Part shown: piece after piece, positions 29,607-58,719 of the stretch
How the letters are laid out: each line of letters starts with the position of its first letter
How positions within the stretch are numbered: position 1 is the stretch's first letter
Source: Mobula hypostoma
Lineage: Eukaryota
Length of the DNA: 64,000 nt
Assembly: GCF_963921235.1 (NCBI RefSeq)
Contig: NC_086097.1
Span: forward strand, 154,940,001-155,004,000
Direction: 5' to 3'
Program-made: the position numbers and the translations under genes
The notes under the pieces: generated by a model
What the model saw: the letters and a program-made list of their open reading frames with translations, nothing else
Told to the model about the DNA's origin: nothing
The model's database searches: none

Positions 29607-29635
29607 AATTGCAACACATTAGACAGTATCTTATT

Positions 29636-35535: not shown

Positions 35536-35706
35536 GTAACACAGATAAGATGCTGGAGGAACTCAGCAGAGCAGACAGCATCAATGGAGTCTTGACCCCC
35601 ATAATGGTGAACGTTTTTTTCTCTCCATACTGTAGATGCTGCTGAGTTCCTCCAGCATTTTGTGTGTGTAACTCTGGATTTCCAGCATCTGCAGAATTGC
35701 TTGTGT
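35536..35706. mobile_element. Miniature PLE-derived foldback (two inverted pLTR ends)
   Basis: Perfect 20-bp inverted repeat atgctggaggaactcagcag (35550-35569 / 35639-35658). Tail ttccagcatctgcagaatt is shared with the PLE at 7545-7574. Confidence 0.75.
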
Positions 35707-36959
35707 TGAAGAATATGGGGTGTATCTTTTCACAAATATCACAAGTAATTTAGGTATCCTTTGCAAATGCATAGTGATAACTACACATGTTCATGGATCT
35801 GCAATGCCACCAGTTCTTGGAACCTGTTTTTTATTAGTATCAAACAAAAACTCAAGCACTTATGCTTTGTATTCTCTAGTGTAAGAGTTAATGACCACCT
35901 CTCCCATCACACAGCATGCCCTTTCCTGAATAACATCACTGCAGTCACAATAACTCTCCAAATACTCCTAAAGATCGACCCAGGACAGATGGAGAGGTCA
36001 AACTGTCGCCAGTAATGACAGCCCAAACAAAATGCCCCCTTTTCTGTGTTTGAAATCTGAGGATGGGGATGTTCCGGAGGTGAAACAATGGTACTGTAGG
36101 ATACTGTAGATGCACTTTGAGAAATCGGAACACTGCTGACTGCCCTTTGGAAATTCTCGAGAAGTGTGCTGAATTATAAAAAGTATGCAGCTGTCATTTT
36201 TAAATAGTAGACTGACTCAGTACACCATATCAAGTATTGGATTTAACTCACGGTTCTCTAAATAATCTGTTAAATATAAATCCACCATTTAGTAGATACC
36301 TTATCACCAGCTTGGCTGTCGGCCTGCATTTTATGATTATAAATGACCAATTTATCAGCAATGAGATCTTCTAACAGCTGCCAATCCCAGTGTAACATTA
36401 ATTAAGGCAACATTAAATCTTCATCTCCCCAATTTTTACCAACTAACAGTAAGCCATCAAGTGATATATAATAGACAAATTACAACAAAATTTATTGAAC
36501 AGAATCCTGTTCTTTGAAGGAATCAGATGTGGCGGCAATGTGGCTGAGACTATCAGTGTTTATCCATTCACAAATGAATGTAAAATTAATAGGCAGGCAT
36601 TCACAAGTATCATGGGAGTTGATTCCATATATGTATGCTCACAATTGGATCTGACATTTTGGGAAATAGTGGAACTCTAGCCCAAATGACGAAAAAATCT
36701 TTGGTTACAGGTTTAGAAGCACTTTAATTCCATTCACAAAATGTTTTCTGAAGGGAATTATTTAAACTATGAGGGTACCACATCTGACTGACAATTGGAC
36801 ATCATTGAACACGAGTGGACCCAATGAACGTTGCAACCATGCTGTTGAGCCCTGTGAATAATGAGCACTTGATCACCCTAGACTCCAGCAGAGCAAAGTG
36901 TAGGGTGCAGTGCTGGCCACTGGCCTTATTTATAGGAACAGATTTAGCATGATTTTGTT

Positions 36960-37410
36960 ATAAAGTCATACAGAATGGAAGAAGGTTCTTTACTTCAACT
37001 TGTCCAGGCCATTCCATTCCATTCGCTTGCCTTTGGCCCATATTGATTTCCTACCATTGTACCTGTCCAAATGTTATTTAAATGTCATAATTGAACAGGC
37101 CTCTATCATTTGTTCTGGCAGTTCATTCTATATACTCACCACTCTCTGTTTGAAAAAGTTGCCACTGAGGTATCTTTTCACTCTTTCTCTTCTCAATTTA
37201 AACCTATGTTCTCTAGTTTTGGACTCCCCCGCCCTGGGGAAAAGACTGTAACTATTTGCCTTTGGTATGTCTCCTGTAGTTTTATAAGCTGCCACTTAGA
37301 CCCCTGTGTTCTAGAAAAAGAATGACCTAGCCTATCCACCACTCCTCACAACTGAAACCTCCAGACTTTATAAGAGTCTCATAAAACCTTTTTTGCACCC
37401 TTTCCAGACT
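36960..37410 (-). mobile_element. Degenerate CR1 3' end
   Basis: Reverse complement of a CR1 ORF2 C-terminus and 3' UTR. Confidence 0.7.
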
Positions 37411-40400
37411 TGATAGATACAGTAGATTTTAAGTAAAATTAAAAGTTGCAATGTCTCCACGCCCACCAAGTAAGGCATATTAGAAGTCTCTGTACCAATT
37501 CAGGTCATTCAGTGCCTGTAACTTACAAACACGTGTAACTAATCCAAAGTCATTGGGGATGTTGGACAAAAATGCTTTGTTCTTTCCTCATTTTATGAGG
37601 TCTTAGCCTTGTTAAAATGCTCACTCCCTTCACCTTACTTCCCAATAGAGACTGTGGGCAGGTGATGTCCCACCATCCTGGCAACTCTCTTTTACACGAA
37701 GTCACTACTTATATGAGAAGGATGGAATACTATAGTGATCTGGCTTTGGTCAATCCCCACAGAACTGAACAGCAGCAGAATCTGAGTGAAGAATGGAACA
37801 ATAAATAAGCTTATGTAATACCTCTTTCACATGGACTAGATCTGAAACATAAGTATTCAGCTAGGTGTACACTGCTACTACTGGTGTGTATCACAATGAT
37901 TTCTAAACCAGAGTGTGCTGCTGAACAGAGGTCATTGGGTACATTTGACTGAAGTATGTGGAACAGGCCATGTGATTTCATGAGGCAGCAAATTAATTGT
38001 TCCAACAATAATCGATTTGTCCAGACTGGAGTGAAATTTTTAAATTCAATCTCTTGCTGTTTTGTTTAAAGTTGTTAAGGTAATGATGTAATAGTTACAG
38101 TGAAGCTAACTGACAGCTACTGACTAATGTGATACAGGTCTCACGAAATTTTAGATATCAGTGTGTGTGGGGGGCCAGAGTTTCTGTTTGATTTATTTCT
38201 TTTCTCCTCACAATAGCAGTTAAGTTGGAAGATGCAAAGACTGTTTAGTTTGATCAAATTACACCAAGCTCTCAACATGTACCAACGAATTAGCTATAAT
38301 GGTTCCAATAATGTCTCAGATATAATGGCATCTGTGTGTGTAGAAAAGAACATGCATGTTTAAATAAAGACCCACTGGATGAATAAACCATGATTTCAAG
38401 GGAAGGAAGGTAGCTAATCTGGGATAATTGGGAGACAGCTGGACCCATTCCTATTGAGGTAAAGACCACAATGATTGGGAAATCATGAAGAAACATTTGA
38501 CTTTGTTTTAGGGAAGATGGTGTATGAAATGCAGATCACCATGTGGGAAGGAAAGGCTCAGTATAGAGCACATATGTGGGCTTTAGATTGATTGGAGGGT
38601 ACTATGTGAGGTTCATTCTTAATATTGTTACATATTGTCCAAAATATAATATCCAGACTAACTCAGTTGAACTGGTAACAGGCACAATATCACGGGCTTC
38701 AGGACCACTTGGCAAGATAAAGGGCATGTAGAATCTCAGCTGAGGTGAATGGTCCTGATCAATGTCCAAGTATTCCTACCGAGGTGCAATTACTGACACA
38801 AACCTGAAAATACCGATAAGATCAATCAATTCACAGATGTTGGTAATCTGAATAAATGCAGGCCAGGTAGCATCTCTGGGAAGAGAATCAGAGTTAACAT
38901 TACAGGTCTGAGACACAACTCTATTTACTCTACTCAAATTCTGCCTGATCTGATCAATGTTCTAAGGGCACTCTGGTCTAATTGCATACTATATATAACA
39001 CGTGGTAGCTTTGGCTTAAAATGTCTTGTTTTCATTTGATTAATCTGATTAATTCTAACTCCAAATCTACGTAGCTTACGTATTGTAATATCACGTGAAA
39101 CTCAAAGTTCAAAGTAAATTTATTATCAGAGTACTAACACGTCACCACACACAACCCTGAGATTCTCCAACAATTCAACATCAGAGAACAGTATTGATTG
39201 CAGAGGACACATTTAAATAGTTACAAATAGGAAAGGAGGTCAAGTAGAATTAATAAAACTGTATTACAAATTTCCAGAGAATTTGGAGAGTGCAGTGAAG
39301 TGGAGTAGTAAATGGATGTGTTTCTCAGAAGGTATAAAGCAACATGGTGAGTGTAAATAGGTATGTACCATTGTTGCTCAGAGTATGTAACATCGTGCAC
39401 ACGTGTACAGTCTAAAATAGAATTTTAAATACACCAGAGATCTGTTAGAAGTCACCATGTTTCCCATATGTTACTCTGCAAACTCTGCATGTCACTTCAC
39501 ACAAGAACCCACATTACGACATACACTACAAGTGTATGAGGAATGATTGAAAAAGAATTGGAACTTCTCAAAGTAGAAAGCACTACATCCTTGTAGCAGT
39601 GAGGTGTTCCACAGCAACTTCAACATGCAGACTAGAAGCAACAGCACTCAGACTTGGATTTGAGTACAGGATAAGAATCGGCTGCTGTAGGGGATCACTG
39701 AGTTAAGCTATGAAGCTGTTAAAACGAGAACAGTACAAACTGGAGCTGCAGACACAATCCAGCAACATTAGAAGTCCTGGAGACTGTGATAGATCTTGGA
39801 GCTTTTCCATTCTTATGTAGTAGAAATTGTGGTTTCTTATAGCAAACAAAGTTGAGGTAAAAGTGGTGTCAAATCAAAGTGTAGCCATTATAATCTTGCT
39901 TATAGAAATAGACTCAGATAAGAGTACTAATTTAATGGACCTCTTGGCACTACACATGTCAAAACTGGTCTTCTTTTATGCAGTGAAAGAGATTGTAAAA
40001 TCATTTGAATTCACCACCCACAGCAATTACATATGGTCATAAATTCAAGGCCAGATACAAAAGGTCAGGTGAGCCCACTGGGAATTATATAGCAGTATTG
40101 AAGAATTTGTCACAGCATTGTGATTTTGGTGTCTTCCTGAGCAGAATGTGAGGGCTGTGGTTTAATGAAGAAGCAGATTTGATCATAATGATTTATTCAA
40201 TTGTTCGAGATGACTGTAATGTGACCACAGTGAAGGAGATGATTTCTAGGATGACCACAGATTGTCGATAAATGGTAACATCAGCGGGAATTTCTTGTAA
40301 CAAAGCTACAACATGACAAAATATTAGCTCCAGCATTGGACTATCCCACTTACCTATACAAGTTTTGTGCAAAAATGAAACAGGTGGTGAAAACTACTAT

Positions 40401-41095
40401 GGCTTCAAAAGCAATCATCCATGACATTTATGCCAGTTTAGAAAAGTGAAGTCTTAACTATGAAAGTGCACGTTGCTTCAGTATAAAAGGCTGGAGTCAA
40501 TACAGCAAGTCAGATACATTCTCAGTACAAGAGAAACACAGGTGACAGAAAGCTTGTTTAATATTGAAGCTACTGAATAGTCTCAGGAAGACAGTTTAAG
40601 CTGCACACAATGCTTAACAAATGTCGTTATCAATTTTCACGATATATGCTGGTGATATTAGGCCTGGTCTGCTTTGATATTGGCAATCAAAATCAAACAG
40701 AATCAAAATGAGATTTATTAACACCAACTCACATTAAATGTGTTGTTTTGTGGCAGCAGCACAGTGCAAAGACATAAATATTATAAAAAGCTCAAATAAA
40801 TTAAAGCGTGCCTGAAAAGGAATTATATAGCTCTCGTGCTTAAGGCTAATGACAATAATAGAAATGTAGTACTTTTAAAATTGAAGTGAATTGAATGATC
40901 AGTATATTAATATGAGCATTGACAGAGCTGACAATAGTGTAACTATGAGCAGAGATTCAGTCATAATGTCAGAAATAATGATTGGCTGGATGCAAGACTG
41001 CATTGTCCCAAGGGCGCTACAGATGGTGGCACGACCAAGACCTAAAGAAGCTGGTGGAGATCCTGGAGACCTGGTTAAGGTTTTCATTGCTATGC

Positions 41096-42510
41096 TGTAG
41101 TTACTTCATTTTAGCAGTTTTGTAAAAGCAGTGTGTTCTGCTTTTGGATGTTTGGCCTTGACTAAAAGAAAAGAGGCTGTGATATTCAAATTAGTAATGT
41201 TGAGTCTACTAATCAAGATGACGGAATCGAGAGAAAGCTTGAGGAGGCAGGGTGTAGAGAGGTTTGTGTCGGACAATGTGGTTCACGGGTTTTTTTGGCG
41301 AGAGCTATGGAGAGGACAGTGGGGGGGGGTGGGGGTGATGGCTGAAGATGTCGTGGGAAGGAGCATCCCTGTTGTACAAAGTGCATTGTGCAGAAGAATG
41401 GCTCTAAAGAGGAAGGGCCAACATACCTGAGAAACAGCCTATTTGTTCAAAATGGATTTCGAGCGATGTTTGGAATGTGGTGTGTGCTTTCACGCAGACC
41501 ACGAGTCCAGAGTGTGAATAAGAAGACAACTTCAACATGAGCTTCAATGATGTGCACATTTAGACTAGTCGAACTATAATAGGTTCTTTTATTTTCCCCT
41601 TTTCTTTTTCCTACTAACTGTTCAATAAAGCTGAAATTTGTAAATATACTTTATTTTAAATTTTTTACGGTGTATGATCTGTTATTTTACACCAACCAGC
41701 AATTGTGCATGGGCAGTACTTACGCAGCATTTACTCAAGTCGAGGTTTCTTTGATTGGAACATCATAACTTCCCTGTTTGGCTGATCCCAAATCATACCG
41801 ACCCTAGACGTATATTGTTTATGAAAGGTGGCCTTCTCACCGCTGAGTACCGTGGCTGTTAGCGGGGCTGGCAACAAGCCAAGTTTCCTTACGAACCCGG
41901 TGGAGGAGCTTCATTGTGGGGGTGCCTGAAGATTTTCTGAAGGCTGTGCAATTGAATCACACCAGCTCTTAATTTCTGCGGCATGGATAATAAATTACTT
42001 CAGTTACTTTCCGCGGCACTACTTTAAACACAGGTTTCCACACAGAAACCGCTTAATCAATTCTTAACAGCAATTACACAGCATTCAGCATTTAATGCTT
42101 GTGTTTTGAGTGGGGTGTATATCCACAAATTATCTACAAATTTGTGGATAATTTTCCACAAATAATGCTTGTGTTTTGAGTGGGGTGAATGTCCAAACTC
42201 CCAATGAACAGGTGTTCAGAGTGCTGAGTTTTATAAAGGGTTTGGTGAAAGCTACACTGATTTGTGGCATTCTGACCAATTGGCTGGTAAGGATGTCGTG
42301 CTAGTCCAGAAGACGTGCCTCCTGATAGGATGGGAGACCCTGGAGAGACGGGGCTAAGGGCACTCCATATGTTAAGAGAAGGGTGGCGTGTATCTGAGGT
42401 CAATGACTTTAATGGTAAGTTGCTCTCGTTTCTGCAAAGTGAGGGAAAAGAATTCTCTGACATGAAAAGTTTAATGGGTCCTTCAGCAGTTGATTTAAAT
42501 TTGGAACTCC
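41096..42510 (+). mobile_element. Truncated Gypsy-like element: LTR (about 41096-41876) plus a partial PNMA-like gag
   Basis: TG..AATAAA..gcaaca LTR-like block, then ACVLSGV..DFNGKLLSFLQSEGKEFSDMKSL, which resembles the N-terminus of Ma/PNMA-type gag. No pol and no second LTR. Confidence 0.6.
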
Positions 42511-42754
42511 TCAGTCCCGACTTCTCTCTGAAGGCTCACTCCACCTGTGTCAATTCTGCAAAGTATCAGCACAATTCATCCCTGAAAGTCACTTTGCTTT
42601 CGCTTGCCTTTTCATTTCTTGCAGTGATAATTTACTACAATTTACTTCAGAAAAAAAGTGTTATTAATAAAGATTTTAGTCAAATTTCTTGTCTTTTGAA
42701 CTACCAGTGAGTTGTCACATGTATTCAGTGGCGCCATCGTAAACCAGAAGTCCA

Positions 42755-42975
42755 GGGTGTGTTGGGATACTTCCTACTTGTCTAGATGCATGCAGTCTCA
42801 ACAACACTCAAGAAGCTCAACATCATACAAGACACTGTAGCAGCTCCCTGGTAGACACCCATCCACTGCACTATTGACACACAGAAGCAGCAGTTTGTAC
42901 CATCTACAGGATGCATAACAACAACTCACCACAAATCTTTAGACAGCACCTTCTAAACCCATGACCTCTACCAGC
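42755..42975 (+). mobile_element. Old LINE ORF2 C-terminal remnant
   Basis: TTLKKLNIIQD..YRMH..SPQIFRQHLLNP-like degenerate reading. Confidence 0.5.
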
Positions 42976-43071
42976 TGCAAGTTGCCCTCTAGGCCATTCA
43001 GTATACAACTTTATTCTGTAGATATAGACCATATTCAGCTTCTGAATTGGCAACATATTGAAAAACCACAT

Positions 43072-43192
43072 TACTAGCTCCTCTTTCAGTTAGTCCTGAC
43101 GAAGGGTCTTGGCCCGAAATGTCGACTGTACCTCTTCCTAGAGATGCTGCCTGGCCTGCTACGTTCACCAGCAACTTTGATGTGTGTTGCTT
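43072..43192 (+). mobile_element. Solo PLE pLTR fragment containing a hammerhead motif
   Basis: Close match to 7418-7538. Confidence 0.88.
43091..43128 (+). ncRNA. Minimal type-I hammerhead ribozyme motif (near intact)
   Basis: TAGTC CTGACGA AGGGTCTTGGCCC GAAA T GTC GACTG: both core boxes are intact, stem I is TAGTC/GACTG, and there is a C>T change in the short stem III. Confidence 0.72.
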
Positions 43193-43734
43193 AACCAAGT
43201 ATCTTTTTTTTTATGAACACACTGCAAATGAATCCAAATTGTCTCAATTCCAAATGAACAGCAAAATTCTAAGTTAGATCTGACTAAATATTCCTAGTCT
43301 CAGTATTATTTTCTATGAACATTTAGATAGCATGAATAAGAGTAGGTTGTTAATACTGGTGGTCTGTGTAAATTCTTTCAGCAGCTTAATTTGGTGGATT
43401 TGTAAGGAATTTAGGAATCTAGAATAATTCCTTTACAATCAGTATACACGTATAAAGTACATATCTCATTTTCATCAATCCCATCCCACCACCATTCCTG
43501 CATTCCTGCTCTCCCCAGTCACAACTTAATTCTGAAGGTCCTAATAAAGATTATTGTTCATCTTATGAACAACAACTGTTTTCCAACAACTTTCCCAAAT
43601 TTTCTGGAAGATTTCATAACAGCAAGGGCTACAGAGTCAACTTATGACGGAAGTCACAATTTAACACAATCTTTCTAAAGAAGACTGAGTTTCTGGTCAC
43701 CACAGTACAAAGAAAGGCAGACACAAGAAGGACA

Positions 43735-44050
43735 GTGTATGCTAGAAGTCTGGAGTAACACACAAGATGCTGGAGGAATTCAGCAGATCAGATGACATTT
43801 ATGAAGGGAAATGGATAGTTGATGTTTTGAGTCAAGACCTTTCATCGGGACTTGAAAGAAAGAGGGGAGATTGCCTGTATAAACAGGAAGAAGAGATTGG
43901 TAAGTGGGGAATAGGGGAATGGGAATGATAAAAGCTTAGAGGTGATTGGTGAAAGTGACAACGGGGTAAAGAAGATGAAATCTTACAGGAGAGGACAGTG
44001 GGCGATGCAGTAAAGAGAAGGAGATGAGGAGGGGAACTGGAAGGAAGAAA
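43735..44050 (-). mobile_element. Older PLE pLTR remnant with a degenerate hammerhead
   Basis: Minus strand gtcccgatgaaaggtcttgactcaaaacatcaac followed by ctgctgaattcctccagcatc. Confidence 0.7.
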
Positions 44051-44489
44051 GAAAAGTAGACCAGATTAAGTATTGTAAAAATCAGTCTTGAGGCATACGC
44101 CAGCCTGAACATGTTGAAACAAAATTCTGATGACAACATAAATCATCAAAGCAACTAAGACATTCCTTCAGAGTTGTAGATTTAAGCAGATGAGAAAATA
44201 TGCATAAAAAAACAATTTTCCGAAATTCCATTAACTATTTCGCTTAGTCTCTCTGCTGTTGACAAAAACAGCACTTGGATTATATGAGGAAAAACTAAAA
44301 GAAAGCAATCACTTCTGAGATAGATTTTAAAGGGGACAATTTGTTAACACAAACAAGATATTACTGAACACAAATGAGATGGAGTGGAAATTACAGGAGT
44401 CGTTGAGCAGGTGAGGAATAGGAAATGTGTGCTTCAATGATTGCCAAGATTTTTGAAAGCATTTCTGATAATCCCTCCAATATTTCTGA

Positions 44490-45565
44490 CATAGAACATA
44501 GAACAGTACAGTACAATACATGATATTTGGCCTACCTTTTAACTCAGCCTAACCCTTCCCTCCACATAGTCCTCCATTTTTCTTTCATCTGTGTGCCTAT
44601 CTGAGAGTTTCTTAAATGTCCCTATTGTATCTGCCTCTATCACCACCCCTCTCCATGTTAAAAAAAATCGACATTGGACATTCCCTACGCTTTCCCCAAA
44701 TCACTTTAAGATTATGCCACCTGGTGTTAGTCATTTCCACCCTGGGAAGAAGTCTCTGGCTATCCACTCTACCTATGCCTCTTATCATCTAATGCACTTC
44801 AACCAAGTCACTGCTCATTCTCATTTGCTCCAAAGTGAAAAGCTCTATCTTGATCAACCTATCCTCATAACACTCACTCTCTCATCCAGACAGCATCCTG
44901 GTAAATCTTCTCTGCATCTTCTTTAAAGCTTCTAGATCCTTCCCATTATGAGGTGACCAGAAGTGAACACAGTACTCCAAATGTGGCCTTACAAGAGCTT
45001 TATAGCGCTGCAACATTACTTCCCTGCTCTTGAACTCAATCCCCTGACTAATGAAGGAAAACATACTATATGCCTTCTTAACCACACTATCAACTTATGT
45101 GGTAACTTTGAGGGATCTGTGAACAAGGACCCAAAGATCACTCTATTCTACCACGCTGCTAAGAATCCAGCAATTAACCCTGTACTCGGCCTTCAAGTTC
45201 AACCTTCCAAAATGTATCACTTCACACTTTTCCAGATTGAACTCTATCTGCCACTTCTCAACCCAGCCCTACATCCTATCAATATTCTGTGGTTACCTAT
45301 GACAACCTTCTACTCTATCTACCACACCACCAATCTTCCTGTCCTCTGCAAATTTACTAACTCACCCTTTCACTTATTCATGCAAATCATTTATAATTAA
45401 AGAACAGGGTTCCCAGAACAGATGCCTGTGGAACACCACTGATCATGGACCTCCAAGCAGAGTCTTCTCCATCCACTACTACTCTCTGTCTTCCGCAGGC
45501 AAACTAAATTCCCAATTCATGCAGCCATGTTTCCCCGGATCACATGCTTCCAGACTTTCTGAATC
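44490..45565 (-). mobile_element. 5'-truncated CR1 LINE
   Basis: YKALVRPHLEYCVHFWSP..RRFTRML, with a (ttctatg)n tail at 44490-44505. Confidence 0.9.
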
Positions 45566-47414
45566 CTGATGTCATGATAAGGTTCCTTTATTGGAAATAT
45601 TTGACAGAACGGGTACACTACTGCTACTAAAAGGTTAGTTGTCAGGAGATTATCAGAAGGGCTGTTGAGAAGGAGAAACACCAAGGTCTCCCTCATTGAT
45701 GAAAGTGTGCCTAGTTTGATCTTATTTGCTTCCACAAATAGGTCAATTTTCTAAAGACATCAGGAATGAGCTCAGTGAGATGAATGAGCAAAGATTCCCT
45801 TTCTGCTTGAGTGAGCCATATTTGCCAAGAAACTGGATGAATTTCCTGCTCCTTTTCAAATAATAAAATGGGGTTGTTAATGTCTTCCTGAAGCAGATAG
45901 TTGGTGAGGTCTCAGGGAAAGATATGAGTTCCAACAATACAACAATCCCTAAAGATTGCACTGTAGAGCAGATAGATGAGATGTAGAAGACCGAGAGTGT
46001 GACCTAACCTTTCAACCACATGAAACAAAGTCCAGATGAAATACTGTAAAAACTAATCTGGAGATGTAAATCAGCCTATCTTAAAGCAAATTCAGATGAT
46101 GATATGAATAAGCAAAGCAACCAAGACATCCCTTCAGAGCTGTAGATTGAAGTAAATTAGAAAATAATGATCAAAGTCAAAAAAATGGCAGAAGTTGGAA
46201 ATCAGAAATAAAAAGAAGAGAACCTAATTTGCTGAACATTTCCATCCTCTGTTTTGATAACAACTAGTTAGGCACTGAACAATACTAGATTAATTTTATT
46301 TGTACTTACTGATAGGAAACTAATAGGATGAACCGCTCTGAATATTACTCCATTGCTTTCAATATGTAGCAAAATTAGTTAGGGGAAAACACAGCTTCAT
46401 TGCTTTTGGGTCAAGTTGTTCCTTCCCATCTGTAGCAACTGTAGCGTTAATAAGAATGTTTGTAAGTTTTATGACCAGCTGGTATGTTTTCAACATACAC
46501 TGAACTTTATTTTTAAGTATAGTATCATTTAACTAAAGAATTTGGAAGAGATTCAGACCACAGAGGATGTCAACTTTCTCTATTTCTGTCTCTTAGAGCA
46601 AGAAGTTTTTAATTTTCAGCTGTTAAGAAGGAAGGGGAACAGAGTTACATCATCCTGCAATCTCAAGTACTCTCTGGCAAAAGAAACTGGGCTCATGCAG
46701 GCCATACCTAGATATATGCAAGAACAGGTCGCACGCTGTACTTTATCAGAGTAAGATTCATTGTTCATCAGTTTGTTCAACTACTCCCACTCCTCTCTCC
46801 ATGGTATCTTTGGTTTCCTTCTGGTGTATTTTTTCCCCATGGTTCAGCCCTCATTCTTCACTCCTCCCGTAATGCCATATTTCTGGCCCATTGTTGAAGA
46901 CATTTCCCTCTGCTTTGAAAAGGAAACACTGCAGATACTGGAAATAAAAAAAACCTGAAGATGGCACTGGAATCATTTGGTACGCAAGGTACTCTAGCAT
47001 CTGCCTGTCTCTCCGGAGAAGGCAGGCTAATTGGACTTTAGATCTGTAGGTTAGTGGTAGAATCAGAGGGCAGATGATAGGAACAAGAGGAGAACAGAAG
47101 GGTTAGTATACATGGATGTTTGATGGCTTGCATGGATGGTGAGCTGAAGGGACTACTTCTGTATAATTTTGTGTGTCTGTGAAACATACCTGACCTTCAT
47201 AGTTTTTTCACTATTCTTTGTTGTGATCCCTGTCTGTTTTTCCTCCATATCTCATCAGATCCTGCTGAGCTCACCTTACACATCAGACATGTTTACTCCC
47301 ATTTCTATTTTCCTGCATTACTTAAAATTGTTTCCTGGCCCACCCCTCCCCTCCCCCTTTCAAAACATATTGCTCAGAATATCTTTTCGATCTTCAAACA
47401 CCTCCTTTACTCTA

Positions 47415-47850
47415 ACAACATACATCAAAGTTGCTGGTGAACGCAGCAGGCCAAGCAGCATCTATAGGAAGAGGCGCAGTCGACGTTTCAGGCCGAGACC
47501 CTTCGTCAGGACTAACTGAAAGAAGAGTGAGTAAGGGATTTGAAAGCTGGAGGGGGAGGGGGAGATGCAAAATGATAGGAGAAGACAGGAGGGGGAGGGA
47601 TAGAGCCGAGAGCTGGACAGGTGATAGGCAAAAGGGGATACGAGAGGATCATGGGACAGGAGGTCCGGGAAGAAAGACAAGGGGGAGGGGTGACCCAGAG
47701 GATGGGCAAGAGGTATATTCAGAGGGACAGAGGGAGAAAAAGGAGAGTGAGTGAAAGAATGTGTGCATAAAAATGAGTAACAGATGGGGTACGAGGGGGA
47801 GGTGGGGCCTTAGCGGAAGTTAGAGAAGTCGATGTTCATGCCATCAGGTC
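47415..47850 (-). mobile_element. PLE 3' end and pLTR
   Basis: Minus strand PDGMNIDFSNFR* followed by a pLTR homologous to 6266-6690. Confidence 0.9.
47476..47515 (-). ncRNA. Minimal type-I hammerhead ribozyme motif with an intact catalytic core
   Basis: Minus strand TTAGTC CTGACGA AGGGTCTCGGCCT GAAA C GTC GACTGC has CUGAnGA, GAAA, the GUC triplet, stem I, stem II and the palindromic ACGT mini stem III. Predicted cut between 47482 and 47481. Confidence 0.8.
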
Positions 47851-47969
47851 ATTACTCTAACCTTACTTTTTTTTAAACTTATCTCACTGAATATATTATC
47901 ACCAGCCTATCTACTTATAATACTTCTTCTCCTCTGCTATTAGACTTCTGAACCAGTCATCTCTTTCAC

Positions 47970-50229
47970 AGATTTCTCAGTGGGCGAGCATCTGGGGGAC
48001 AGTGACCACCGCTCCCTGGCCTTTAGCGTTATCATGGAAAAAGATAGAAACAGTGAGGACAGGAACATTTTTAGTTGGGGAAGGGGAAATTATGAGGCTA
48101 TAAGGCTAGAACTTGCGGGTGTGAACTGGGATGATGTTTTTGCGGGGAAATGTACCATGGACATGTGGTCAATGTTTAGGCATCTCTTGCAGGATGTCAG
48201 GGATATATTTGTCCCGGTGAGGAAGATAAAGAATGGTAGGATGAAGGAACCACAGGTGACAAGTGAGGTGAGGCAGCATACATGAGGTTTAGGAAGCAAG
48301 GATCAGATGGGTCTATTGACAAATATAGGGTAGCAAGAAACGTGCTTAAGAAGGGGCTGAGAAGAGCAAGAAGGGGGCATGAGAAGACCTTGGCGAGTAG
48401 AGTAAAGGAAAACCCCAAGGCATTCTTCAATTATGTGAAGAACAAAAGGATGACAGGAGTGAAGGTAGGACCGATTAGAGTTAAAGGTGGGAAAATGTGC
48501 CTGGAGGCTGTGGAAGTGAGCGAGGTCCTCAATGAATACTTCTCTTCGGTATTCACCAATGAGAGGGAACTTGATGACAGTGGGGACAATATGAGTGAGG
48601 TTGATGTTCTGGAGCATGTTGATATTAAGGGAGAGGAGGTGTTGGAGTTGTTAAAATACATTAGGATGGCTAAGTCCCTGGGGCCTGACGGAATATTCCC
48701 CATGCTGCTCCATGAGGCAAGGGGAGAGATTGCTGAGCCTCTGGGTAGGATCTTTATGTCCTCGTTGTCCACAGGAATGGTACTGGAGGATTGGAGGGAG
48801 GCGAATGTTGTCCCCTTGTTCAAAAAAAGTAGTAGGGATAGTCCGGGTAATTATAGACCAGCGAGCCTTACGTCTGTGGTGGGAAAGCTGTTGGAAAAGA
48901 TTCTTAGAGATAGGATCTATGGGCATTTAGAGAATCATGGTCTGAACAGGGACAGTCAGCATGGCTTTGTGAAGGGCAGATCGTGTCTAACAAGCCTGAT
49001 AGAGTTCTTTGAGGAGGTGACCAGGCATATAGATGAGGGTAGTGCAGTGGATGTGATCTACATGGATTTTAGTAAGGCATTTGACAAGGTTCCACAGGGT
49101 AGGCTTATTCAGAAAGTCAGAAGGCATAGGATCCAGGGAAGTTTGGCCAGGTGTATTCAGAATTGGCTTGCCTGCAGAAGGCAGAGGGTGGTAGTGGAGG
49201 GAGTACATTCAGATTGGAGGATTGTTACTAGTGGTGTCCCACAAGGATCGGTTCTGGGACCTCTACTTTTCGTGATTTTTATTAACGACCTGGATGTGGG
49301 GGTAGATGGGTGGGTTGGCAAATTTACAGACGACACAAAGGTTGGTGGTGTTGTAGATAGTGTAGAGGATTGTCGAAGATTGCAGAGAGACAATGATAGG
49401 ATGCAGAAGTGAGCTGAGAAGTGGCAGATGGAGTTCAACCTGGAGAAGTGTGAGGTGGTACACTTTGGAAGGACAAACTCCAAGGCAGAGTACAAAGTAA
49501 ATGGCAGAATACTTGGTAGTGTGGAGGAGCAGAGGGATCTGGGAGTACATGTCCACAGATCCCTGAAAGTTGCCTCACAGGTAGATAGGGTAGCTAAGAA
49601 AGCTTATGGGGTGTTAGCTTTCAGAAGTCGAGGGATAGAGTTTAAGAGTCTTGAGGTAATGATGCAGATCTATAAAACTCTGGTTAGGCCACACTTAGAG
49701 TACTATGTCCAGTTCTGGTCGCCTCACTATAAGAAGGATGTGGACGCATTGGAAAGGGTACAGAGGAGATTTACCAGGATGCTGCCTGGTTTAGAGAGTA
49801 TGCATTATGATCAGAGATTAGGGAAGCTGGGGCTTCACGCTTTGGAGAGAAGGAGGATGAGAGGAGACATGATAGAGGTGTACAAGGTAATAAGAGGAAT
49901 AGATAGAGTGGACAGCCAGCGCCTCTTCCCCAGGGCACCACTGCTCAATACAAGAGGACATGGCTTTAAGGTAAGGGGTGGGAAGTTTAAGGGGGATATT
50001 AGAGGAAGGTTTTTTACTCAGAGTTGTTGGTGCATGGAATGCACTGCCTGAGTCAGTGGTGAAGGCAGATACACTAGTGAAATTTAAGAGACTACTAGAC
50101 AGGTACATGGAGGAATTTAAGATGGGGAGTAATATGGGAGGTAGGGTTAAAGGGTCAGCACAACATTGTGGGCTGAAGGGCCTGTACTGTGCTGTACTAT
50201 TCTATGTTCTATTTTCTATATGTTCTATA
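47970..50229 (+). mobile_element. Relatively young 5'-truncated CR1 (end of APE plus RT and C-terminus)
   Basis: SDH, QHGFVKGRSCLTSL, GVPQGSVLGPLLF and KFTDDTK. There is a TGG>TGA stop at 49410-49412 and a few frameshifts. Tail ttctatgttctat. Confidence 0.96.
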
Positions 50230-51699
50230 TCCTTCCATGTGGTGCTGCCACGCTCTCTGACTCCTAATTCTCCCAGTGATTTTAATTCCCTTATTGTCAC
50301 TTTGGCATTCCTTTTTGCAATAGTTCAAACTGAACTACAATGCTTGTGTCATGCTGTTGTTTGTGCTTTTTGTTGCATTTACTGTTACATTTATAATTAC
50401 CATGTATACTATTGACACAGTGAGCTTCATATGAGCAAAGAAGTCTGTCCACATTGGTATGCATGACAATAAACTAAATCTGAATCTGATAGAAGGAGGC
50501 AATTTGTCCTATCATGTCTATTCTAACTCCCAAGGGAGCCTTCCCCCTCCCCATTGACCCTCTCACGTCATTGCACCCCTGCAGCCAATTCTCTCTGAAA
50601 TATTACAAAAGAGGGAAAAACTTGTTTTCTCTTTTTTTGTTTCTGAGGGACTTCAACCTGAAATGCTGATGTTTCTCATTCCACAGATGCTGTCTGACCT
50701 GCTGGGGTTTTCCAGCATTTTACAGAGTCCACGGCTTCCTTTAATTTTCACTTACTACCCATCAAGTCCTCTTGATTATTGTTCACTGTTAACCTACCCA
50801 AGGAGATGAGTTAAAATACCCAATAAACCTTCCAGCACATCTTCAAATCATGAGCGAAAACTAGAGCACCTAAAGAAAATCCATTTGGTCAAAGAGTGGA
50901 CATGCAGTTGGACCGAAGCCCTTGTTTCTGTATGACACTGTGGCTCTTCGACTTTCATACTTCTGTGTATTACCTGACAGATCTATTTATGTATCTTTCA
51001 ATTGTTCACACATTTTATATCTTGTCAGCACTATCCAAAATACTGGACGTCTACTGTAATTGGTGAAGGAGAAGGCATTATCAATTCACTAGCTGATTCC
51101 CTGTCTGATTTGAGATTGAATTCCCCATCAGGTGGGGGATATTCTAAATTGATCCAGAGCAGCAAGATCATTTCAGGTGTCAGCAGCTGGTTAGATCTGA
51201 TGTAGTCCTCAACCCTGGAAATGGAGTCTGAGCTCAGAGGTGGAGACTGACCATGCAACTTTATTGTGTGTAGTTCGGGGCAGAGGATGTGATCAGTGAT
51301 TGATCCTCAGTTGTTGCATCAAGAGAGTGATGGTCATGTATAAAAATTTTGATGGACAAAGTAAAAGTTGAGGGAAATGTTTCAAAATTGGAACAGGGCA
51401 GCCAAATTCATAGGGAAGACAGAAGATCAAATCCTGCTGATGCAGGCCGTGCATCTCATAAATGGCGCACTCAGCAAATTCTTTGATGAGTTTACCAGAT
51501 TACATATAAAGTGTTTCTTTTGTTTCCCCATAAAAAACTGGACTTCAAGGACATGCAGTATCAACAGGAGCTCCAACCTAGCTCTGCTAAAATGTCTCTG
51601 AATGTTTAACTTACAAATGCCCAACCCCAGACTTTGCCAGCTGCAAGGGCCAATAAATATTAGGAAACTAAACTCTCCCTGCTTATCCTTTTACTGAAT

Positions 51700-52960
51700 G
51701 TAACTGAAGAATCTCTTGGGCTTGTCGATAATCATGTCTGTCACATCCATTTTATACACCCTTTTTGCACTCCTGATTTTCTCTTAAGCCTGGTCTTAAA
51801 CTTTTTTTATTTTCATTGAGGGATTCCCAGCTGCCTAAACATGATGTACATTGCTTTCGTTTTTTTTCTGACTGGAACTTCAATAATTCTCATCGGTCAT
51901 GATTCACTGAACTTGGGATGTCTACCTTCATTCTAAAAGGAATATTTTGCCCCTTGGCTTTGATATGACCTTTCTAAAAGTATTCCATTTGCCAACTGTT
52001 CCTTTGCCTTTAAAAAGAGTCATCCAGTCAACTCCAGCTATATCCTGCCTAATGCCCTCAAAGTTGACCCTGCTCTAATTCAGGACTTTAACCTGTAGAC
52101 CTGTTTTATCTTTTTGCATAATTATTTTAAAACTATTGGAAGTGTAGTCACTAGACCCAAATTGCTGAAAAACTGCCACTTCATTCACATGGCCTACCTT
52201 ATTTCCAAAGGTGATATCCAGTATTGCTCACTTCCAAGTAGTTTCCTCTATATGTTTTGTGAGGGAACTGCCTTGGATCACTGTAGAAATTCCTTTCTGG
52301 CTTTTGGGAGGTCTATAATAAAGTCTAATGAAGGTGACCACCCCCTTCTTATTTCTAACTTCAACCCAAATGACCTCATTAGATGATTCCTCAGGAATAT
52401 CCTCTCTAAGCACTGTTGTTATGTCTTTCCTTATCAAACAGGAAACACCCTGGCCTGTTCCTCTGTCACACCTAAATCATCCGTATCTTGGGACATTGAG
52501 CTACTAGCCCTTCCCTTCTCTCTACCACGTGTCTGTTATGGCCACGATATCCCAATCCCTAAAGGTAGTCTATATCCTCAGTTTGTTCGTTTCACCTGAT
52601 AAGCTGTGTGCATTGAAACAGATTTTAAAATCTGATTAAAGTTGTGGTCCCATCTGTCCTTCTACTGTAATCATGGCTGTTCTGATTTCTGAGCTCTGTG
52701 GTGGCTTCACATACCCCTGTCTTCTCACTGACTTCACTCTGTCAAGTCACACTCCTTGCCAGTCTAATTTAAGAAGCAAAAGAAAATTTCCTCATTGGGT
52801 TATTGGTCCTCTTCCAGTTCAAGTACAACCTGTACATTTTGCAGAACTCAACTCTACCCCAGAAGAGATCCCAATGATCCAAGAACCTTCAATGCCTGTC
52901 CTCTGCACTAGCTCTTCCGCATGGAATCCAATGCTAAGTCCAATGCATAGATTTGGCATT
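51700..52960 (-). mobile_element. Degenerate CR1 5' part (endonuclease region)
   Basis: EVIWVEVRNKKGVVTFIRLYYRPP. Confidence 0.8.
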
Positions 52961-53027
52961 CCAAGCATCAGTAAATTTAGGACTTTTATGTTTGATAATA
53001 CAAATGCAGAAATCTTGCACTCAAGTT

Positions 53028-53800
53028 CATAGAGTTCATAGATGTAAACAAGCCCTTTGGCTTGATTGATAACGTTGACCAAGATGCACCATCCAAGCTG
53101 GTCCCATTAGCCGGCATTTGGCCTATGACCTTCTCAATCTTTTCTATCAATGTACCTGGGAGCTCATTCTACATACACACTACCCCCAGTGCAAAAAATA
53201 GTTGCCTCTAAAGTTCCTATTAAATCTTTCCCCTCTCTCCTTAAACAAATGCCCTCTAGTTCTTGATTCCTCATTCCGGAAAAGAAAGACTGAACATTCA
53301 CGCTATCAATGCCCCTATGAGTTCATACACTGTATACACCTCTATAAGATTATCTGTCAATTAGGTATCTGAGTAGCCAGGGCATCAAAGGTTATGGTGA
53401 GAAGGCAGGGGAGTGGGATAAAAGAGGAGAATGGATCAGCTCATGATAAAATGGCGGAGCAGACTCGATGGGCCGAATGGCCTACTTCTGCTCCTTTGTC
53501 TTATGGTCTTATCACTTGCACTCAAAGGAATTAGGTTCTAACCTGTCCAAACTCTCCCTATAACTCAGTCCCTCAAGTCCTGGCAAAATTCTTGCAAATT
53601 TTTTCTGCACTCTTTCCAGTTAAACATCCACTTATCTATAGCATGGCGAACAAAACTGATTATAATACTTCACGTGTTGCTTTATCAGCGGCTTGTACAA
53701 CTACATGGTGACCTCCCATCTTTTATACTCAATGCCTTAACTGATCAACACCATCATGCCACAGTCCTTCTTCACCATCCTGAATACCCATGACACCATT
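53028..53800 (-). mobile_element. CR1 3' end with a nested plus-strand CR1 tail (about 53362-53512)
   Basis: Reverse-complement CR1 C-terminus interrupted by a segment ending gtcttatggtcttat. Confidence 0.75.
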
Positions 53801-54604
53801 TCCAATTTCCAATCCTCGAACTATCATTTAAGCTGTTTCTCTGTGAAACCTCTGGCATTTATCAGCAAGGTCAGGGCAATAAGTCAGCAGCATGGGGGTG
53901 CATTATTATTATTATTTCCCAACTCCAGGGATCAGTTCAATCCTGTCCTCGGCTGCTCTCTCTGTGGAGCTTGCAAAATGTTGCATAAAGGCATGAATAT
54001 CCCCTTGGTGTTTCAGTTTCCTCCAAAACCCCAAATATGTGCTGCTTGGCTAATTAGCTCCTATGGTATGTCCTTAGATTAATGACAGAAACAAAGAAGT
54101 GAGAATAAATTGCAGGGATTTCAAGCAAATTGAGAGAGTGGAAACAGAATGAATAGGATTGCTTCATTAGAAGCAGACAAGGATCTGATAGTCAAATAGT
54201 CTCTTCTGCAACTTTATAAAACAAATAACTCAGAATTAAGTGTTATTTTTACTACTTCAAGAATTTTACTACTGTACATTGGTATAACCTGTAAATAAAT
54301 AGCTTCGTCCCTTGAATAAATGATGCTTTGTGTCTAAGGTATGAGTCATTTACATGAGTTGGTGATGGATGTGAAGAATGAAATGCAAGATTAGACTGTA
54401 GATTATTTAACAAGAGATAAAAATATTAATATTGCAAGTGGAAACTTTCATTTGTATTGGTCACCGCAAGAACCATTTCAGCAAATCGACCAAAACAATG
54501 AGCAAAAGTATAGATTAATCATTTAAAACAATAGCCCTGTCCTTGATATATCTTTATGTAAACTCAGCTATTTCAAAAACAAGTTGCTCACATTCTATTA
54601 AAAA

Positions 54605-54970
54605 AAAGCCCAATATTTACAATATGTTACACAGCCTCAGGACATCCCAAAACACTTCATAACAAACCAAGTACTAATAATGTGATGTTAGTCTTGTAGG
54701 AAGTGTGACAACTAACTTACACATAATGAGGTTCTATAAATACCAACGTGATCAGATGATTTGTTTTTCCTATAGTTGTTAGATAAGGGATAATATCCAA
54801 GACACTAGGAAAAGCTCCTCTGCATTTCAGAATAGAACCACAGACTTTCTTTATGTCAGCCCGAATGATCTTCTGAAAGAAGCATTTCCTGTGATGCAAT
54901 ACTCCTTCAGTACTATACTGAAGCATCAGCCTAGAACTTGTACTTGTCTGACTGATGTGGCTGAAACCCA
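54605..54970 (-). mobile_element. Ancient Deu-domain SINE remnant (SacSINE1/AmnSINE1-like)
   Basis: Minus strand gctgatgcttcagtatagtactgaaggagtattgca...gtgttttgggatgtcctgaggctgtg resembles the remembered DeuSINE core (cagtactgagggagtgctgca) and tail (gcgctttgggacgtcctgagg). Confidence 0.7.
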
Positions 54971-55809
54971 CAACATATTGACTTTAGAAACTTGTTCTTT
55001 TTAATTGATAAGGGAGGAACTGAACATTAAATGATATATGGCTTAAAATAGCTGTGGTTCCTGCAGCAGCAATAACCTTGAAAGATGGGCGTAATATCTC
55101 TGTAAACATCACTTACATTACACTGATTGAAGATTGGTTTTGTGGCTTTGGGAAGCAACCATGATTGCTGTGCATATTTGGCTCACATTGTCTATTCTTC
55201 AAGAACACTGGATTTACCATTTTTATGTAAAAATTCCAAAATGCGTGCATTAGAAATGGCATCAACAACCACATAAAAAGCCTATAGTGTATCATTACTT
55301 CTGCCTTTCTCTTAATTCTCTCATCAAGAAATTCTATTGTGATTTGAAAAGATTGCCTTGGCTAGAAACAATTTCATCAGCAACCTGATCTTCTGGTACT
55401 TCTGGCATAATTTGCTGAAGTATCAATGTTTCCTTTCAGAGTAATCCATGACTGCCAAGACTTGTGCAGTCACACCTGATGGCATGCAATGGAAGGCTGG
55501 ATAAACTTCTGCAAAATTCATTGACACATCTGAGGGCCATGGATGACGTGACCCACTCATTCAAAAGCAGGCTTTCCGAGCAATGAATGGCCTTTCCTTA
55601 ACCGAACATATCCACCCGAGCAGGTTGGGTAATTCAGGCCTGTTTTTAATTGACACATGGAACCCTCACCATGGTTTTCCATTTCATCACCATCCCTCCC
55701 ACCACCCCATCGAATCACAAGCCCCACTCTGTTGCTACCCCAGCAGCCAATGCAAGAACTTCTCTAAATGCACAAAATTAGGCCCACTGTCATCCTGCTG
55801 GAACTTTAA

Positions 55810-56150
55810 CTGTGATAAATAAATGCTCCATTGAATCAATATTAACCTACAACATCAGAGCATGGTTCAGAGCAATGAGCTCCATCAACCTCAACCCACT
55901 CAACAGAATTGTCAGAATAAGTGGTGAAATCATTGGCCAGGAACAAGAATCACCTAACAGCATCCATAAGAGACAGACAATAAAAAAGGATCAACAAATA
56001 GCAGAGGACATTACACATACGCTTCAAACATACTCAACTCTCATGCAGTCTGGACTCTGCTACAGGTCCCTGCCCATCGGCACCAAAAGAGTCTCATCCA
56101 GTTTTGTGCCTTCCGCCAGATGCCTCCTCAACACCCAATTCTGAATACAT
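55810..56150 (+). mobile_element. Rex1/L2-type LINE C-terminal remnant
   Basis: SIESILTYNIRAWF..SGLCYRSL..SSFVPSARCLLN, homologous to 16125-16440. Confidence 0.75.
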
Positions 56151-56293
56151 GGTACGCATTGCACCTTTGACAGTAAAAGCAGTCAGTTTTATTATGTGTA
56201 TTTGTATTTTGAATTACATGCACTAATTTTCAGTATTTATTATCTATTATGAGTATTTTATATTGTGTTTAGCTATATATAGTGTGGCATTGT

Positions 56294-56616
56294 GTGGGCA
56301 TGTGGCCAAGTGGTTAAGGCATTGGACTAGCGACCTGAAGGTCATGAGTTTGAGCCCCAGCCGAGGCAACGTGTTGTGTCCTTGAGCAAGGCACTTAATC
56401 ACACATTGCTCTGCGACAGCACTGGTGCCAAGCTGTATGGGTCCTAATGCCCTTCCTTTGGACAATATTGGTGTCGTGGAGAGGGGAGACTTGTAGCATG
56501 GGCAATTGCTGGTCTTCCATACAACCTTGCCCAGGCCTGCACCCTGGGGAGTGAAGACTTTCCAAGCACAGATCCATGGTCTCGCAAGACTAACGGATGC
56601 CTTTATTATTTATTAC
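56294..56616 (+). mobile_element. tRNA-derived SINE, full length (same family as 17305-17615)
   Basis: A box TGGCCAAGTGG and B box GTTTGAGCC. 11-bp TSD tgtggcattgt (56283-56293 / 56617-56627). Confidence 0.9.
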
Positions 56617-57019
56617 TGTGGCATTGTCCTTACCACTGAACTAACAAAGTTACTCACGGAAAATAAAGTGAATTGAATTCAATTGAATCTGAGTGTTCAA
56701 ACCATTGCTTGGTTTCTTACCTGGTAATTTGAAAGGGAGGAGGATCAGGACCAAACAAAACCTCGTTCTAAATAATTTCCTTTTTACTTTCCTCTGGATG
56801 ATATTGGCCTGTGGCTTGTTAATGATACTCCACAACTGGTTACACTCTACTGCAACTGAGGGAAGTTCAACATGAACACTGTGGTCTCCAATTGGGCAGG
56901 TATACATAATTATTTTTCTGTTTTGAGATTTAATGAATGTGGTTAGTGGAAAGGGCATGAATAAGAAGACTGCCATTTAATGAAAATTTCGCAAGTGTAA
57001 TTAAAGTTTCTTTACAAAA

Positions 57020-57800
57020 TCTTCATGGTAGTCTACTTAATGAGTTTATAAAGGTTGAAAAAAAGTCATGAGTTACATGATTTGGGTAGATAGACTCTGT
57101 TTTTCCCAGGATACAGAGTCTAAAATCAAAGGGCATTGCTTTAAGGAGAAAGAAGAAAGATTTAAAGAAGACTAAAGGAGTAAGTTTTTCACACAGAGGG
57201 TGGAGGGACATGGAACAAGTTGTCAAATGAAGTCATAGAGTCTTACAGCAAGGAAAAAGGCTTCAGCCTGACTGGCCCTTTGAAGAGCAACATGCCTATC
57301 TAAGCTAGTCCAATTTCTCTGCATTTGGCCCAAATCCTTCTAAACCAGAAGAGTTCTCAACCTTTTTTTATGCCATGGACCCTTATCATTAAACAAGCGG
57401 TCTGTGGACCACTGGTTGGGAACCCCTGCTCTAAATCTTTACGATCTATGTACCTCTTTGAAAAGTTGTTATTGTATCGTTCTCAAACATTTCCTCAGGC
57501 AGCTCATACATACCTTCCTCTGTGTCAAAAGCCTGCCACTCAAGTACCTTTTAAATCTTTTTCCTCTCATCTTAAACCTATAGTATGCCCTCTAATTCTT
57601 GATTGGCCAAACCTTTGGAAAAGCAAGTGTATTCAGCTTTTCTATGCCCCTCATGATTTATACACTTCCACATAGATATATTTGCAATACGACAGGTTCA
57701 TAAATAGGAATTGTAAATAGCAGTAGCTCTGGAAGTCACTTGATCAACATGGATGAGTTAGGCCAAAGGTCCTGCTTCCATGCTGTGTAACTCTATGACT
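57020..57800. mobile_element. Nested CR1 3' ends (plus-strand host, minus-strand insert about 57233-57670)
   Basis: CR1 C-terminal and 3' UTR motifs in both orientations. Confidence 0.65.
57346..57428. mobile_element. 83-bp hAT (Buster-type) MITE
   Basis: Ends cagaagagttctcaacc / ggttgggaacccctg are related to the TIRs of 32312-33052. Flanks ttctaaac / ctctaaat (6 of 8 match, central TA). Confidence 0.72.
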
Positions 57801-57883
57801 GCCTGATGTCACAATTAGTAACTGTGGAAATCAATGCAGAATGAAGCTGCTTCTTGATTAATTCCTGATCCATATTAAGTGAC

Positions 57884-58007
57884 ACACATAAAAGTTGCTA
57901 GTGAACGCAGCAGGCCAGGCAGCATCTCTAGGAAGAGGCACAATCGATGTTTCGGGCTGAGACCAGTGAGAAGGACAGAGGGAGAAAAAGGAGAGAGAGA
58001 AAAAGAA

Positions 58008-58041
<34 letters not shown>

Positions 58042-58337
58042 AACATCGACTTCTCTAACTTCCGTTAATGCCCCATCTCCCCCTCGTACCCCATCCGTTA
58101 TTTATTTTATCTCCATCCCTCCCGCTCCTGTCTTCTCCTATCATTTTGGATCTCCCACTCCCCCCCGCCACTTTCAAATCTCTTACTAGCTCTTCTTTCA
58201 GTTTGTCCTGACGAAGGGTCTCGGCCCGAAACATCGACTGTGACTCTTCCTGGAGATGCTGCCTGGCCTGCTGCATTCACCAGCAACTTTTATGTGTGTT
58301 GCTTGAAATTCCAGCATCTGCAAATTTCCTCGTGTCC
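57884..58337. mobile_element. ORF-less PLE unit: inverted partial pLTR (57884-58040) plus pLTR (58042-58337) with a hammerhead at 58203-58240
   Basis: GTC CTGACGA AGGGTCTCGGCCC GAAA C ATC GACTG on the plus strand. An inverted copy of its 3' part lies upstream. Confidence 0.85.
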
Positions 58338-58719
58338 ATGTTAAGTGAGCTGGTTTTGGCTAGAGTAACAGATTTGGTCCAATATGTTTCTAAAAACATC
58401 TTTTGCAAATCTAAGAGGATTGTAAGTTTATACTGGCTGTGATATCCTCTTTGCCAATACCAACCAGTTGTGTGTAAATGAATAATGGGCCTCATGGGTG
58501 ATGTGTAAGATGGCAAACTTCACAGTATTAATTGTACTCTGGGTTTTGCTTAGGGAGAAAATTAAGACAAATTTTATTTAATAAATCACTTGATATGGGC
58601 CAATAATTGCTGTCAGAGTAAAGGTGAGGTTACTAGCATATAGTGTTACTTGTGCAACTGTAGCTTAAGATGAATATACATTTAGGCATGGACATTGAAA
58701 ATTTCCATTGACCATGAGC

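Follow-up and report, generated by a model that had tools for sequence, protein, structure and literature searches.

A minimal hammerhead motif of a Penelope-like element in a col22a1 intron of Mobula hypostoma

Does a hammerhead motif lying in an intron of a collagen gene cut the transcript of its host? The question is raised by the minus strand of the window (the whole stretch of 64,000 nucleotides of Mobula hypostoma DNA analysed here, to which all positions refer unless another locus is named). An initial annotation had reported there, at 47476..47515, an intact hammerhead ribozyme in the sense orientation of the col22a1 pre-mRNA, and had proposed that the nascent transcript cleaves itself, or that the many related copies form a dispersed set acting on host introns.

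The motif, its element and its host intron

Read directly, the minus strand from 47515 to 47476 has the letters of a minimal type-I hammerhead, with the core, the stem I and the ACGT palindrome spelled as the initial annotation had them:

47514-47510 with 47481-47477, minus strand: stem I, 5 bp, one of them U.G
47509-47503, minus strand: CUGACGA box
47489-47486, minus strand: GAAA box
47486-47483, minus strand: ACGU palindrome (A-CG-U) in the place of stem III
47482, minus strand: last base of the cleavage triplet GUC; predicted cut 47482/47481
within 47476..47515, minus strand: stem II, GGGU/GCCU with a CUCG loop and an extra unpaired A after A9, from folding

The architecture agrees with the minimal type-I form described for Penelope-like elements (PLEs) in PMC4209133, in which a palindrome replaces stem III: the core CUGANGA...GAAA...UH is present in type-I order, helix I with 5 bp falls within the short range of 4-5 bp, helix II with 4 bp exceeds the minimum of 3 bp, an extra nucleotide lies between 9 and 10.1, and 15.2-16.2 is palindromic. 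The word "intact" holds for the core letters but not for the pair 10.1-11.1, which is G.U instead of the conserved G-C. This follows from the better fold of stem II, with the extra A left unpaired after A9 (-7.7 kcal/mol, against -6.3 for the pairing originally proposed). The missing G10.1-C11.1 is a highly conserved trait, lying outside the descriptor of PMC4209133.

Could such a motif arise by chance? The CUGANGA and GAAA boxes alone give 4 matches in the window against 2.35 expected, and 22 of 100 shuffles reach 4, which is not significant. The full structural descriptor is far more selective: in 1.464 Mb it gives 47 matches, against 0, 0, 1, 0 and 0 in five shuffles, and all 47 belong to the repeat family of the focal motif, no second hammerhead family with different stems being found by it there. 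The focal motif is real, beyond chance. Variation of the stems among copies is one-sided only (U.G/C-G in stem I, U.G/U-A in stem II). An Rfam scan of the window gave no hammerhead family at E<=10, and 11 unrelated weak matches; the minimal form escapes Rfam detection.

The motif sits in a short insert flanked by a perfect duplication:

47417..47851, minus strand: 5'-truncated 3' end of a Neptune-type PLE, 435 bp, from identity to the full-length element in locus L173
47852..47861, minus strand: target-site duplication, upstream copy, 10 bp, perfect
47407..47416, minus strand: target-site duplication, downstream copy, 10 bp, perfect

The insert comprises, in order, the last codons of the open reading frame and its stop, the 3' untranslated region, the hammerhead, and 65 nt to the element end. 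It shares 96.8% identity with the 3' end of the full-length element and 96.5-98.8% with each of the ten loci compared, and it is devoid of the extra tail found on 39 of 69 sampled element ends. The duplicated 10-mer occurs on the minus strand of the window at two places only, which are the two flanks of the insert. A target preference for GTTAG among the best matches was rejected as a ranking artefact (1 of 30 tail-less ends in an unbiased sample).

The full-length element in L173 (1506-5658 of that locus, minus strand) has a 1043-codon frame with a reverse transcriptase (RT), a C-X4-C-X2-C linker and a GIY-YIG domain. This linker is of the CX2-5CxxC kind found before the endonuclease in Neptune elements and absent in Penelope and Poseidon according to PMC8557442. 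The frame, like a 682-codon frame in locus L172, matches RVT_1 and GIY-YIG weakly, below the Pfam cut-offs. Its RT motif reads YIDN, which is YIDD in other copies. One hammerhead stands at the 3' end of the element and two in partial tandems 5' of the frame, 513 nt apart (5660-5040 of L173, minus strand): this is the pLTR location expected of the minimal form. The predicted cut falls 61 and 139 nt before the first and second in-frame AUG. The partial tandems, the inverted 5'-truncated copies (22 inverted pairs among the 197 copies counted below) and the optional tail are likewise features of Neptune-type elements, a clade assigned here by linker motif, not by tree. The PLE pLTR origin that had been claimed for the motif is borne out by insert, duplication and full-length structure; judging from these sequences, the motif is the hammerhead tail of a Neptune-type PLE inserted recently in the col22a1 intron. 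Its position 65 nt short of the 3' end means that 5' truncation always spares it, hence copies in tens of thousands.

The host features are as follows:

31901..64000 and on to window-equivalent 81065, minus strand: col22a1 intron after the VWA exon, 49,165 nt, donor 81065, acceptor 31901
31826..31900, minus strand: col22a1 75-nt exon, AG/GT bounded, from COL22A1 mapping and spliced contigs
25222..25321, minus strand: col22a1 100-nt exon, from the same evidence

The VWA exon maps 17 kb past the window end, which places the motif in sense orientation in the intron upstream of the 31826-31900 exon, as had been supposed; the predicted cut is 33.6 kb from the donor and 15,581 nt short of the acceptor. 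The best of 112 matches of the VWA exon is white-shark collagen XXII (95% identity; collagen XXII of other vertebrates reaches at most 72%), which points to a cartilaginous fish, and the exons map in order across at least 277 kb. Contigs in two of four sequencing runs join the 75-nt and 100-nt exons at CT..AC ends; the source animals may or may not carry the focal insertion. One spliced contig has 656 nt ahead of the 75-nt exon, a length which would fit the VWA exon. The unique flanks of the insertion at 46600-47383 have no coverage in the contigs of the runs. No Gly-X-Y exon of at least five triplets was found in the window, and a collagen-like plus-strand frame at 42291-42710 was rejected as a col22a1 exon, since it matched nothing in the COL22A1 mapping. 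Further upstream, 82 kb beyond the VWA exon, a 246-codon frame (C1:155,103,396-155,104,133, minus strand) looks similar on visual inspection to the first 300 residues of P0001, a model of shark collagen XXII; it may be one more exon of the gene, or belong to an adjacent gene that P0001 has fused to it.

Copies of the family and the activity of a lone motif

A pattern search for the 38-nt core finds 29,805 exact copies genome-wide, and a relaxed pattern with both boxes intact finds 86,220 matches, even between strands, with 0 in reversed controls. With C at 11.1 the core has 4,395 exact copies, against the 29,805 with U. The U at 11.1 (47490 in the window) is found in 48 of 76 young copies, compared with 30 C-to-T changes in 304 at other CpG sites, and in all 16 copies that resemble the query by 95% or more, a count biased by the choice of query. 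A CpG decay private to the focal copy is ruled out, U11.1 being common across the genome copies: the dominant lineage is without the conserved G10.1-C11.1 pair. A G.U at this place lowers hammerhead activity. No rate for a G.U at 10.1-11.1 was found in the passages of PMC544870. A C at core position A6 has 3,144 genome matches, and none of the 76 young copies is altered at A6; these sequences suggest that an older lineage spread although its core was broken.

One may ask whether the motif is dead as a ribozyme even for the element, being a protein-binding or structural signal, or simply drifting. We regard this as rather unlikely, and it would be compatible with an inert focal copy. The prevalence of U11.1 in the most amplified lineage and the matches with C at A6 speak for it, as do the ribozyme mutants which insert unimpaired in vitro (PMC11167929) and the Naiad PLEs which thrive without canonical hammerheads (PMC8557442). 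On the other hand, the remaining core letters have been retained, as have the extra A and the palindrome, and among young copies the non-CpG core cells differ less than others do (6 of 684 against 142 of 5650, p=0.005), a comparison confounded by base composition and sub-lineages.

At the observed density, the chance of at least one exact sense copy is 0.19 in the focal intron and 0.70 in the 277-kb gene. With 29,805 exact copies in the genome, a sense copy in a gene of the size of col22a1 is expected. The focal copy is an ordinary member of the known PLE min-HHR (minimal hammerhead) kind and, as one of about 30,000, of little weight in itself. We found no account of this hammerhead family in cartilaginous fish in the literature covered (Repbase, Lunse et al. 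2017 and supplements may contain one), nor any relevant title on the intron orientation of PLE hammerheads.

The five further copies announced in the window are all present, with the changes described:

6257..7570, both strands: inverted PLE insertion, with a sense arm, a GIY-YIG remnant and a broken core at 6316-6355 (CTGACGC), and an antisense arm at 7436-7475 (GAAA to AAAA)
43071..43189, plus strand: the element end in antisense, within the focal intron, whole motif included (43091-43128); 119 nt, 90% complementary
43816..43852, minus strand: old, degraded copy in sense, with neither core box intact; alignment score 26, where 500 shuffles gave no more than 15
57882..58306, both strands: inverted pair, with a sense remnant at 57886-58002 without CUGANGA, and an antisense arm at 58111-58306 (ATC triplet, 58203-58240)

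Two amendments are needed: at 43091 the palindrome is gone, ACGT having become ATGT, and the sense remnant 57886-58002 is a copy additional to those announced. BLAST missed the degenerate copy at 43816-43852, which direct alignment recovered. Other repeats in the window include an inverted insertion without the motif, where a minus-strand PLE 3' region abuts a plus-strand PLE RT fragment (60035-60578); a MITE-like fold-back element at 29630-30064, whose arms measure 88 nt (94%) and 60 nt (92%); and two 241-nt copies, 93% alike and in opposite orientation (17375-17615 and 56292-56532), likely a tRNA-derived SINE, with a weak tRNA match at 17546-17605. The introns are largely filled with broken frames, named by eye as LTR-retrotransposon-like (RT, integrase; 9780-12283, 18681-22625, 26275-28755) and LINE-like (14201-16440, 48267-50051).

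Which partners would a transcribed focal copy meet? There is no intact sense partner within its intron, and the nearest lies 51,966 nt away, beyond three exons. The antisense copy 43071..43189 is about 4.2 kb downstream in the transcript (nearest antisense distance 4,349 nt), and its duplex with the focal copy reaches -209 kcal/mol, against self-folds of -30 and -28; the duplex with the antisense arm 58111-58306, about 11 kb away, reaches -237 kcal/mol. According to these models the two antisense copies could mask the focal motif. The same disposition holds in the five-gene sample described below, where an antisense copy is nearer than a sense partner in 17 of 18 intact sense copies.

In folding, the focal 40-mer forms a rod in which the core GACG is paired with CGUC, and the stable monomer fold with helix III known from host ribozymes is absent. 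The probability of a hammerhead-like fold is about 1e-3 for the 40-mer alone and 1e-6 to 1e-7 in context, where upstream pyrimidines capture the core. In the window copy (pyrimidine-rich stretch 47530-47500, minus strand) and likewise in the two tandem copies of L173, folding predicts that this stretch pairs with the core, possibly as a built-in lock. A double hammerhead in trans costs +11 kcal/mol relative to two monomers, an inactive dimer of -31.7 kcal/mol being preferred. As the model gives P=3e-23 even to the double hammerhead of the natural L173 tandem, folding fails to separate active from inactive settings and is weak evidence.

Published work bears more directly on the question. A single min-HHR showed no detectable cleavage, and dimers and trimers a low one (Cervera and De la Pena 2014, PMC4209133); a review reports likewise on dimers, citing Lunse et al. 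(PMC6765202). The PLE hammerhead of the anole cuts only with the element protein and is dispensable for insertion in vitro, and no RNA-seq read starts or ends at its site (Frangieh et al. 2024, PMC11167929). In view of these inactive monomers, of the missing sense partner and of the nearer antisense copies, the self-cleavage of the col22a1 transcript that had been proposed finds no support.

We consider it probable that the focal copy is inert in the col22a1 intron, and that it would need both a nearby second copy and the element protein to cut. The partial tandem of L173, with its motifs 513 nt apart, is the layout where dimers are thought to form: in such a precursor RNA, a double hammerhead would form between two motifs via their ACGU palindromes and crossed stems I and, probably aided by the element protein, would trim the element RNA. 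A copy standing alone in an intron would adopt inactive hairpins or be bound by antisense copies of that intron, and splicing would remove it with the intron. At the mammalian elongation rate of 3.5-4.1 kb/min (PMC10919898), the next exon is reached about 4 minutes after the motif.

Orientation of the copies in host introns

If intact sense copies were harmful or useful to their hosts, their orientation might tell. The count covered col22a1 together with parts of three CSMD-like genes and one cubilin-like gene, all four with CUB domains, their strand and exon order having been confirmed: 211 copies were found in 1.864 Mb, and dropping the 14 outside the mapped col22a1 span left 197 in 1,677,470 bases. 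Over all copies, 91 are sense and 106 antisense (p=0.32). The strictly intact copies of this five-gene sample are level, 18 sense and 24 antisense of 42 (p=0.44), with a 95% interval of 0.28-0.59 for the sense share, which means that a 2:1 depletion of intact sense copies is still compatible. Exact copies (11 sense, 10 antisense of 21), unpaired intact copies (9 and 15) and the first 1.28 Mb alone (intact copies, 18 and 18) were also counted; intact copies and the rest are alike in orientation (p=0.73). Among the 22 inverted pairs the sense arm is the sole intact arm in 4 and the antisense arm in 4, and in young copies the core is changed in 3 of 297 sense cells and 3 of 387 antisense cells.

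These counts bear on the view of the initial annotation, that the copies are a dispersed ribozyme set whose trans dimers regulate host introns, that of col22a1 included. It can point to tens of thousands of identical palindrome-bearing cores, to three strictly intact sense copies within col22a1, to element-derived contigs abundant in runs guessed to be RNA, and to CPEB3 as a precedent for control by an intronic ribozyme (PMC10919898). The focal copy is nevertheless a young insertion with a perfect duplication, its placement is expected by chance (about 0.7), and sense copies are neither enriched nor better kept than antisense ones. The trans double hammerhead is moreover disfavoured against the inactive dimer, and sense-antisense duplexes reach about -210 to -240 kcal/mol. 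We find this view unsupported and very improbable.

A different picture came from 400 kb of giant introns, picked in advance as the place where slow cutting should cost most, in the three CSMD-like genes (C1:238.30-238.50 Mb, C76:18.40-18.50 Mb, C2:75.90-76.00 Mb). Intact copies there are 0 sense and 6 antisense (binomial p=0.031), against 5.6 intact sense copies expected from the rate in ordinary introns, whereas non-intact copies are 25 sense and 16 antisense (intact versus non-intact, p=0.007). None of the 5 intact copies lying at least 30 kb from the next exon is sense, against 18 of 37 nearer (p=0.06), and old and non-intact copies at that distance are 12 sense and 13 antisense. The farthest intact sense copy lies 24.6 kb from the next exon; 6 of 24 antisense copies lie farther. 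Thresholds of 10 and 20 kb give no orientation effect (p=0.53 and 0.26), nor does a rank test of distance to the next exon by orientation (p=0.11).

This deficit would be explained if intact sense copies cut the host pre-mRNA slowly, over hours, or only where the element protein is made. Such cutting would be costly only when the next exon is far, so that selection would remove or break sense copies in giant introns and the col22a1 copy, at 15.6 kb, would be tolerated. Besides the absence of sense copies among the six in giant introns and the five at 30 kb or more, with no gap in old or non-intact copies, this reading agrees with the report that fast intronic ribozymes abort splicing and slow ones do not (PMC10919898, citing Fong 2009), and protein-assisted cutting is known from PMC11167929. 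The signal nevertheless comes from n=6, with more than 25 subsets counted and p uncorrected, and the rank test does not confirm it. Five of the six copies come from two genes, and for two of the stretches the distances given are minimum values. The focal copy, furthermore, is without sequence past the element end, where the protein would bind by analogy with the anole element. We judge slow, harmful cleavage unlikely, and take the 0-versus-6 result as a lead only, which keeps it in play and counts against the inert reading that we prefer.

Were slow cleavage true, it would be a genomic proof that PLE hammerheads cut in vivo, the distance threshold, about 25-30 kb in our sample, would yield their half-life in vivo, and it might account for the weakened G.U pair in the winning lineage. 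The family is a test bed for whether minimal PLE hammerheads cut in vivo (PMC4209133, PMC8557442, PMC11167929): the 86,220 matches with intact boxes permit a count of sense and antisense copies by exon distance, with the broken copies as a built-in control.

Comparison with known systems

The focal motif shares with the min-HHRs of metazoan PLEs (PMC4209133) a helix I of 5 bp, the extra nucleotide between 9 and 10.1, the palindromic 15.2-16.2 and the lack of helix III, and also the occurrence as single motifs in truncated copies and as inverted pairs 100-700 bp apart. Such motifs are known in Neptune, Xena and Poseidon elements of fishes (PMC4209133). It differs by a helix II of 4 bp, against 7-8 there, and by the G.U at 10.1-11.1 in the dominant lineage, against G-C. 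The family has 29,805 identical cores here, whereas PMC4209133 gives about 4,000 in the coelacanth and about 9,000 in Xenopus, which are variable, and 97 identical of 130 in D. virilis.

The parent element resembles the Neptune-type EN+ PLEs (Craig et al. 2021, PMC8557442) in its RT, its CX2-5CxxC linker and its C-terminal GIY-YIG, as well as in the 5' truncation, the partial tandems, the adjacent inverted copies and the 30-40 bp tail on some ends. Like the Poseidon element PAc of the green anole (PMC11167929), it is a PLE of a vertebrate, and its hammerhead is close to the element end and to the start of the frame. In PAc the frame begins inside stem II, in contrast with the cut well before the AUGs here, and the clade is different.

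Non-LTR retrozymes (PMC7229834), which are related to PLEs, also have type-I hammerheads in very large numbers, with as many as 120,000 in the axolotl; the number in our family is high for PLE motifs but below this. Unlike the retrozymes, which are non-coding tandem repeats, the focal copy is a single stub with a target-site duplication, starting in PLE coding sequence. A recent preprint (bioRxiv 10.64898/2026.07.22.740005) has one chondrichthyan in its set and reports, for Xenopus, a mild under-representation of retrozymes in introns; no strand test was seen in its available part.

Host intronic ribozymes (the HDV-like ribozyme of CPEB3, PMC10919898, and the ultraconserved hammerheads of amniotes) likewise lie in sense orientation in an intron, 10-16 kb before the next exon. 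They are single-copy and conserved, and the CPEB3 monomer is active with a half-life of 2-3 min, whereas the focal motif is a young repeat without helix III; its 29,805 exact copies and perfect duplication are at odds with a single-copy, conserved site recruited by the host. The focal motif is thus neither a retrozyme nor a conserved host ribozyme. As far as sequence features define these classes, it has the tested features of min-HHRs except G10.1-C11.1, and its parent element has the tested features of Neptune.
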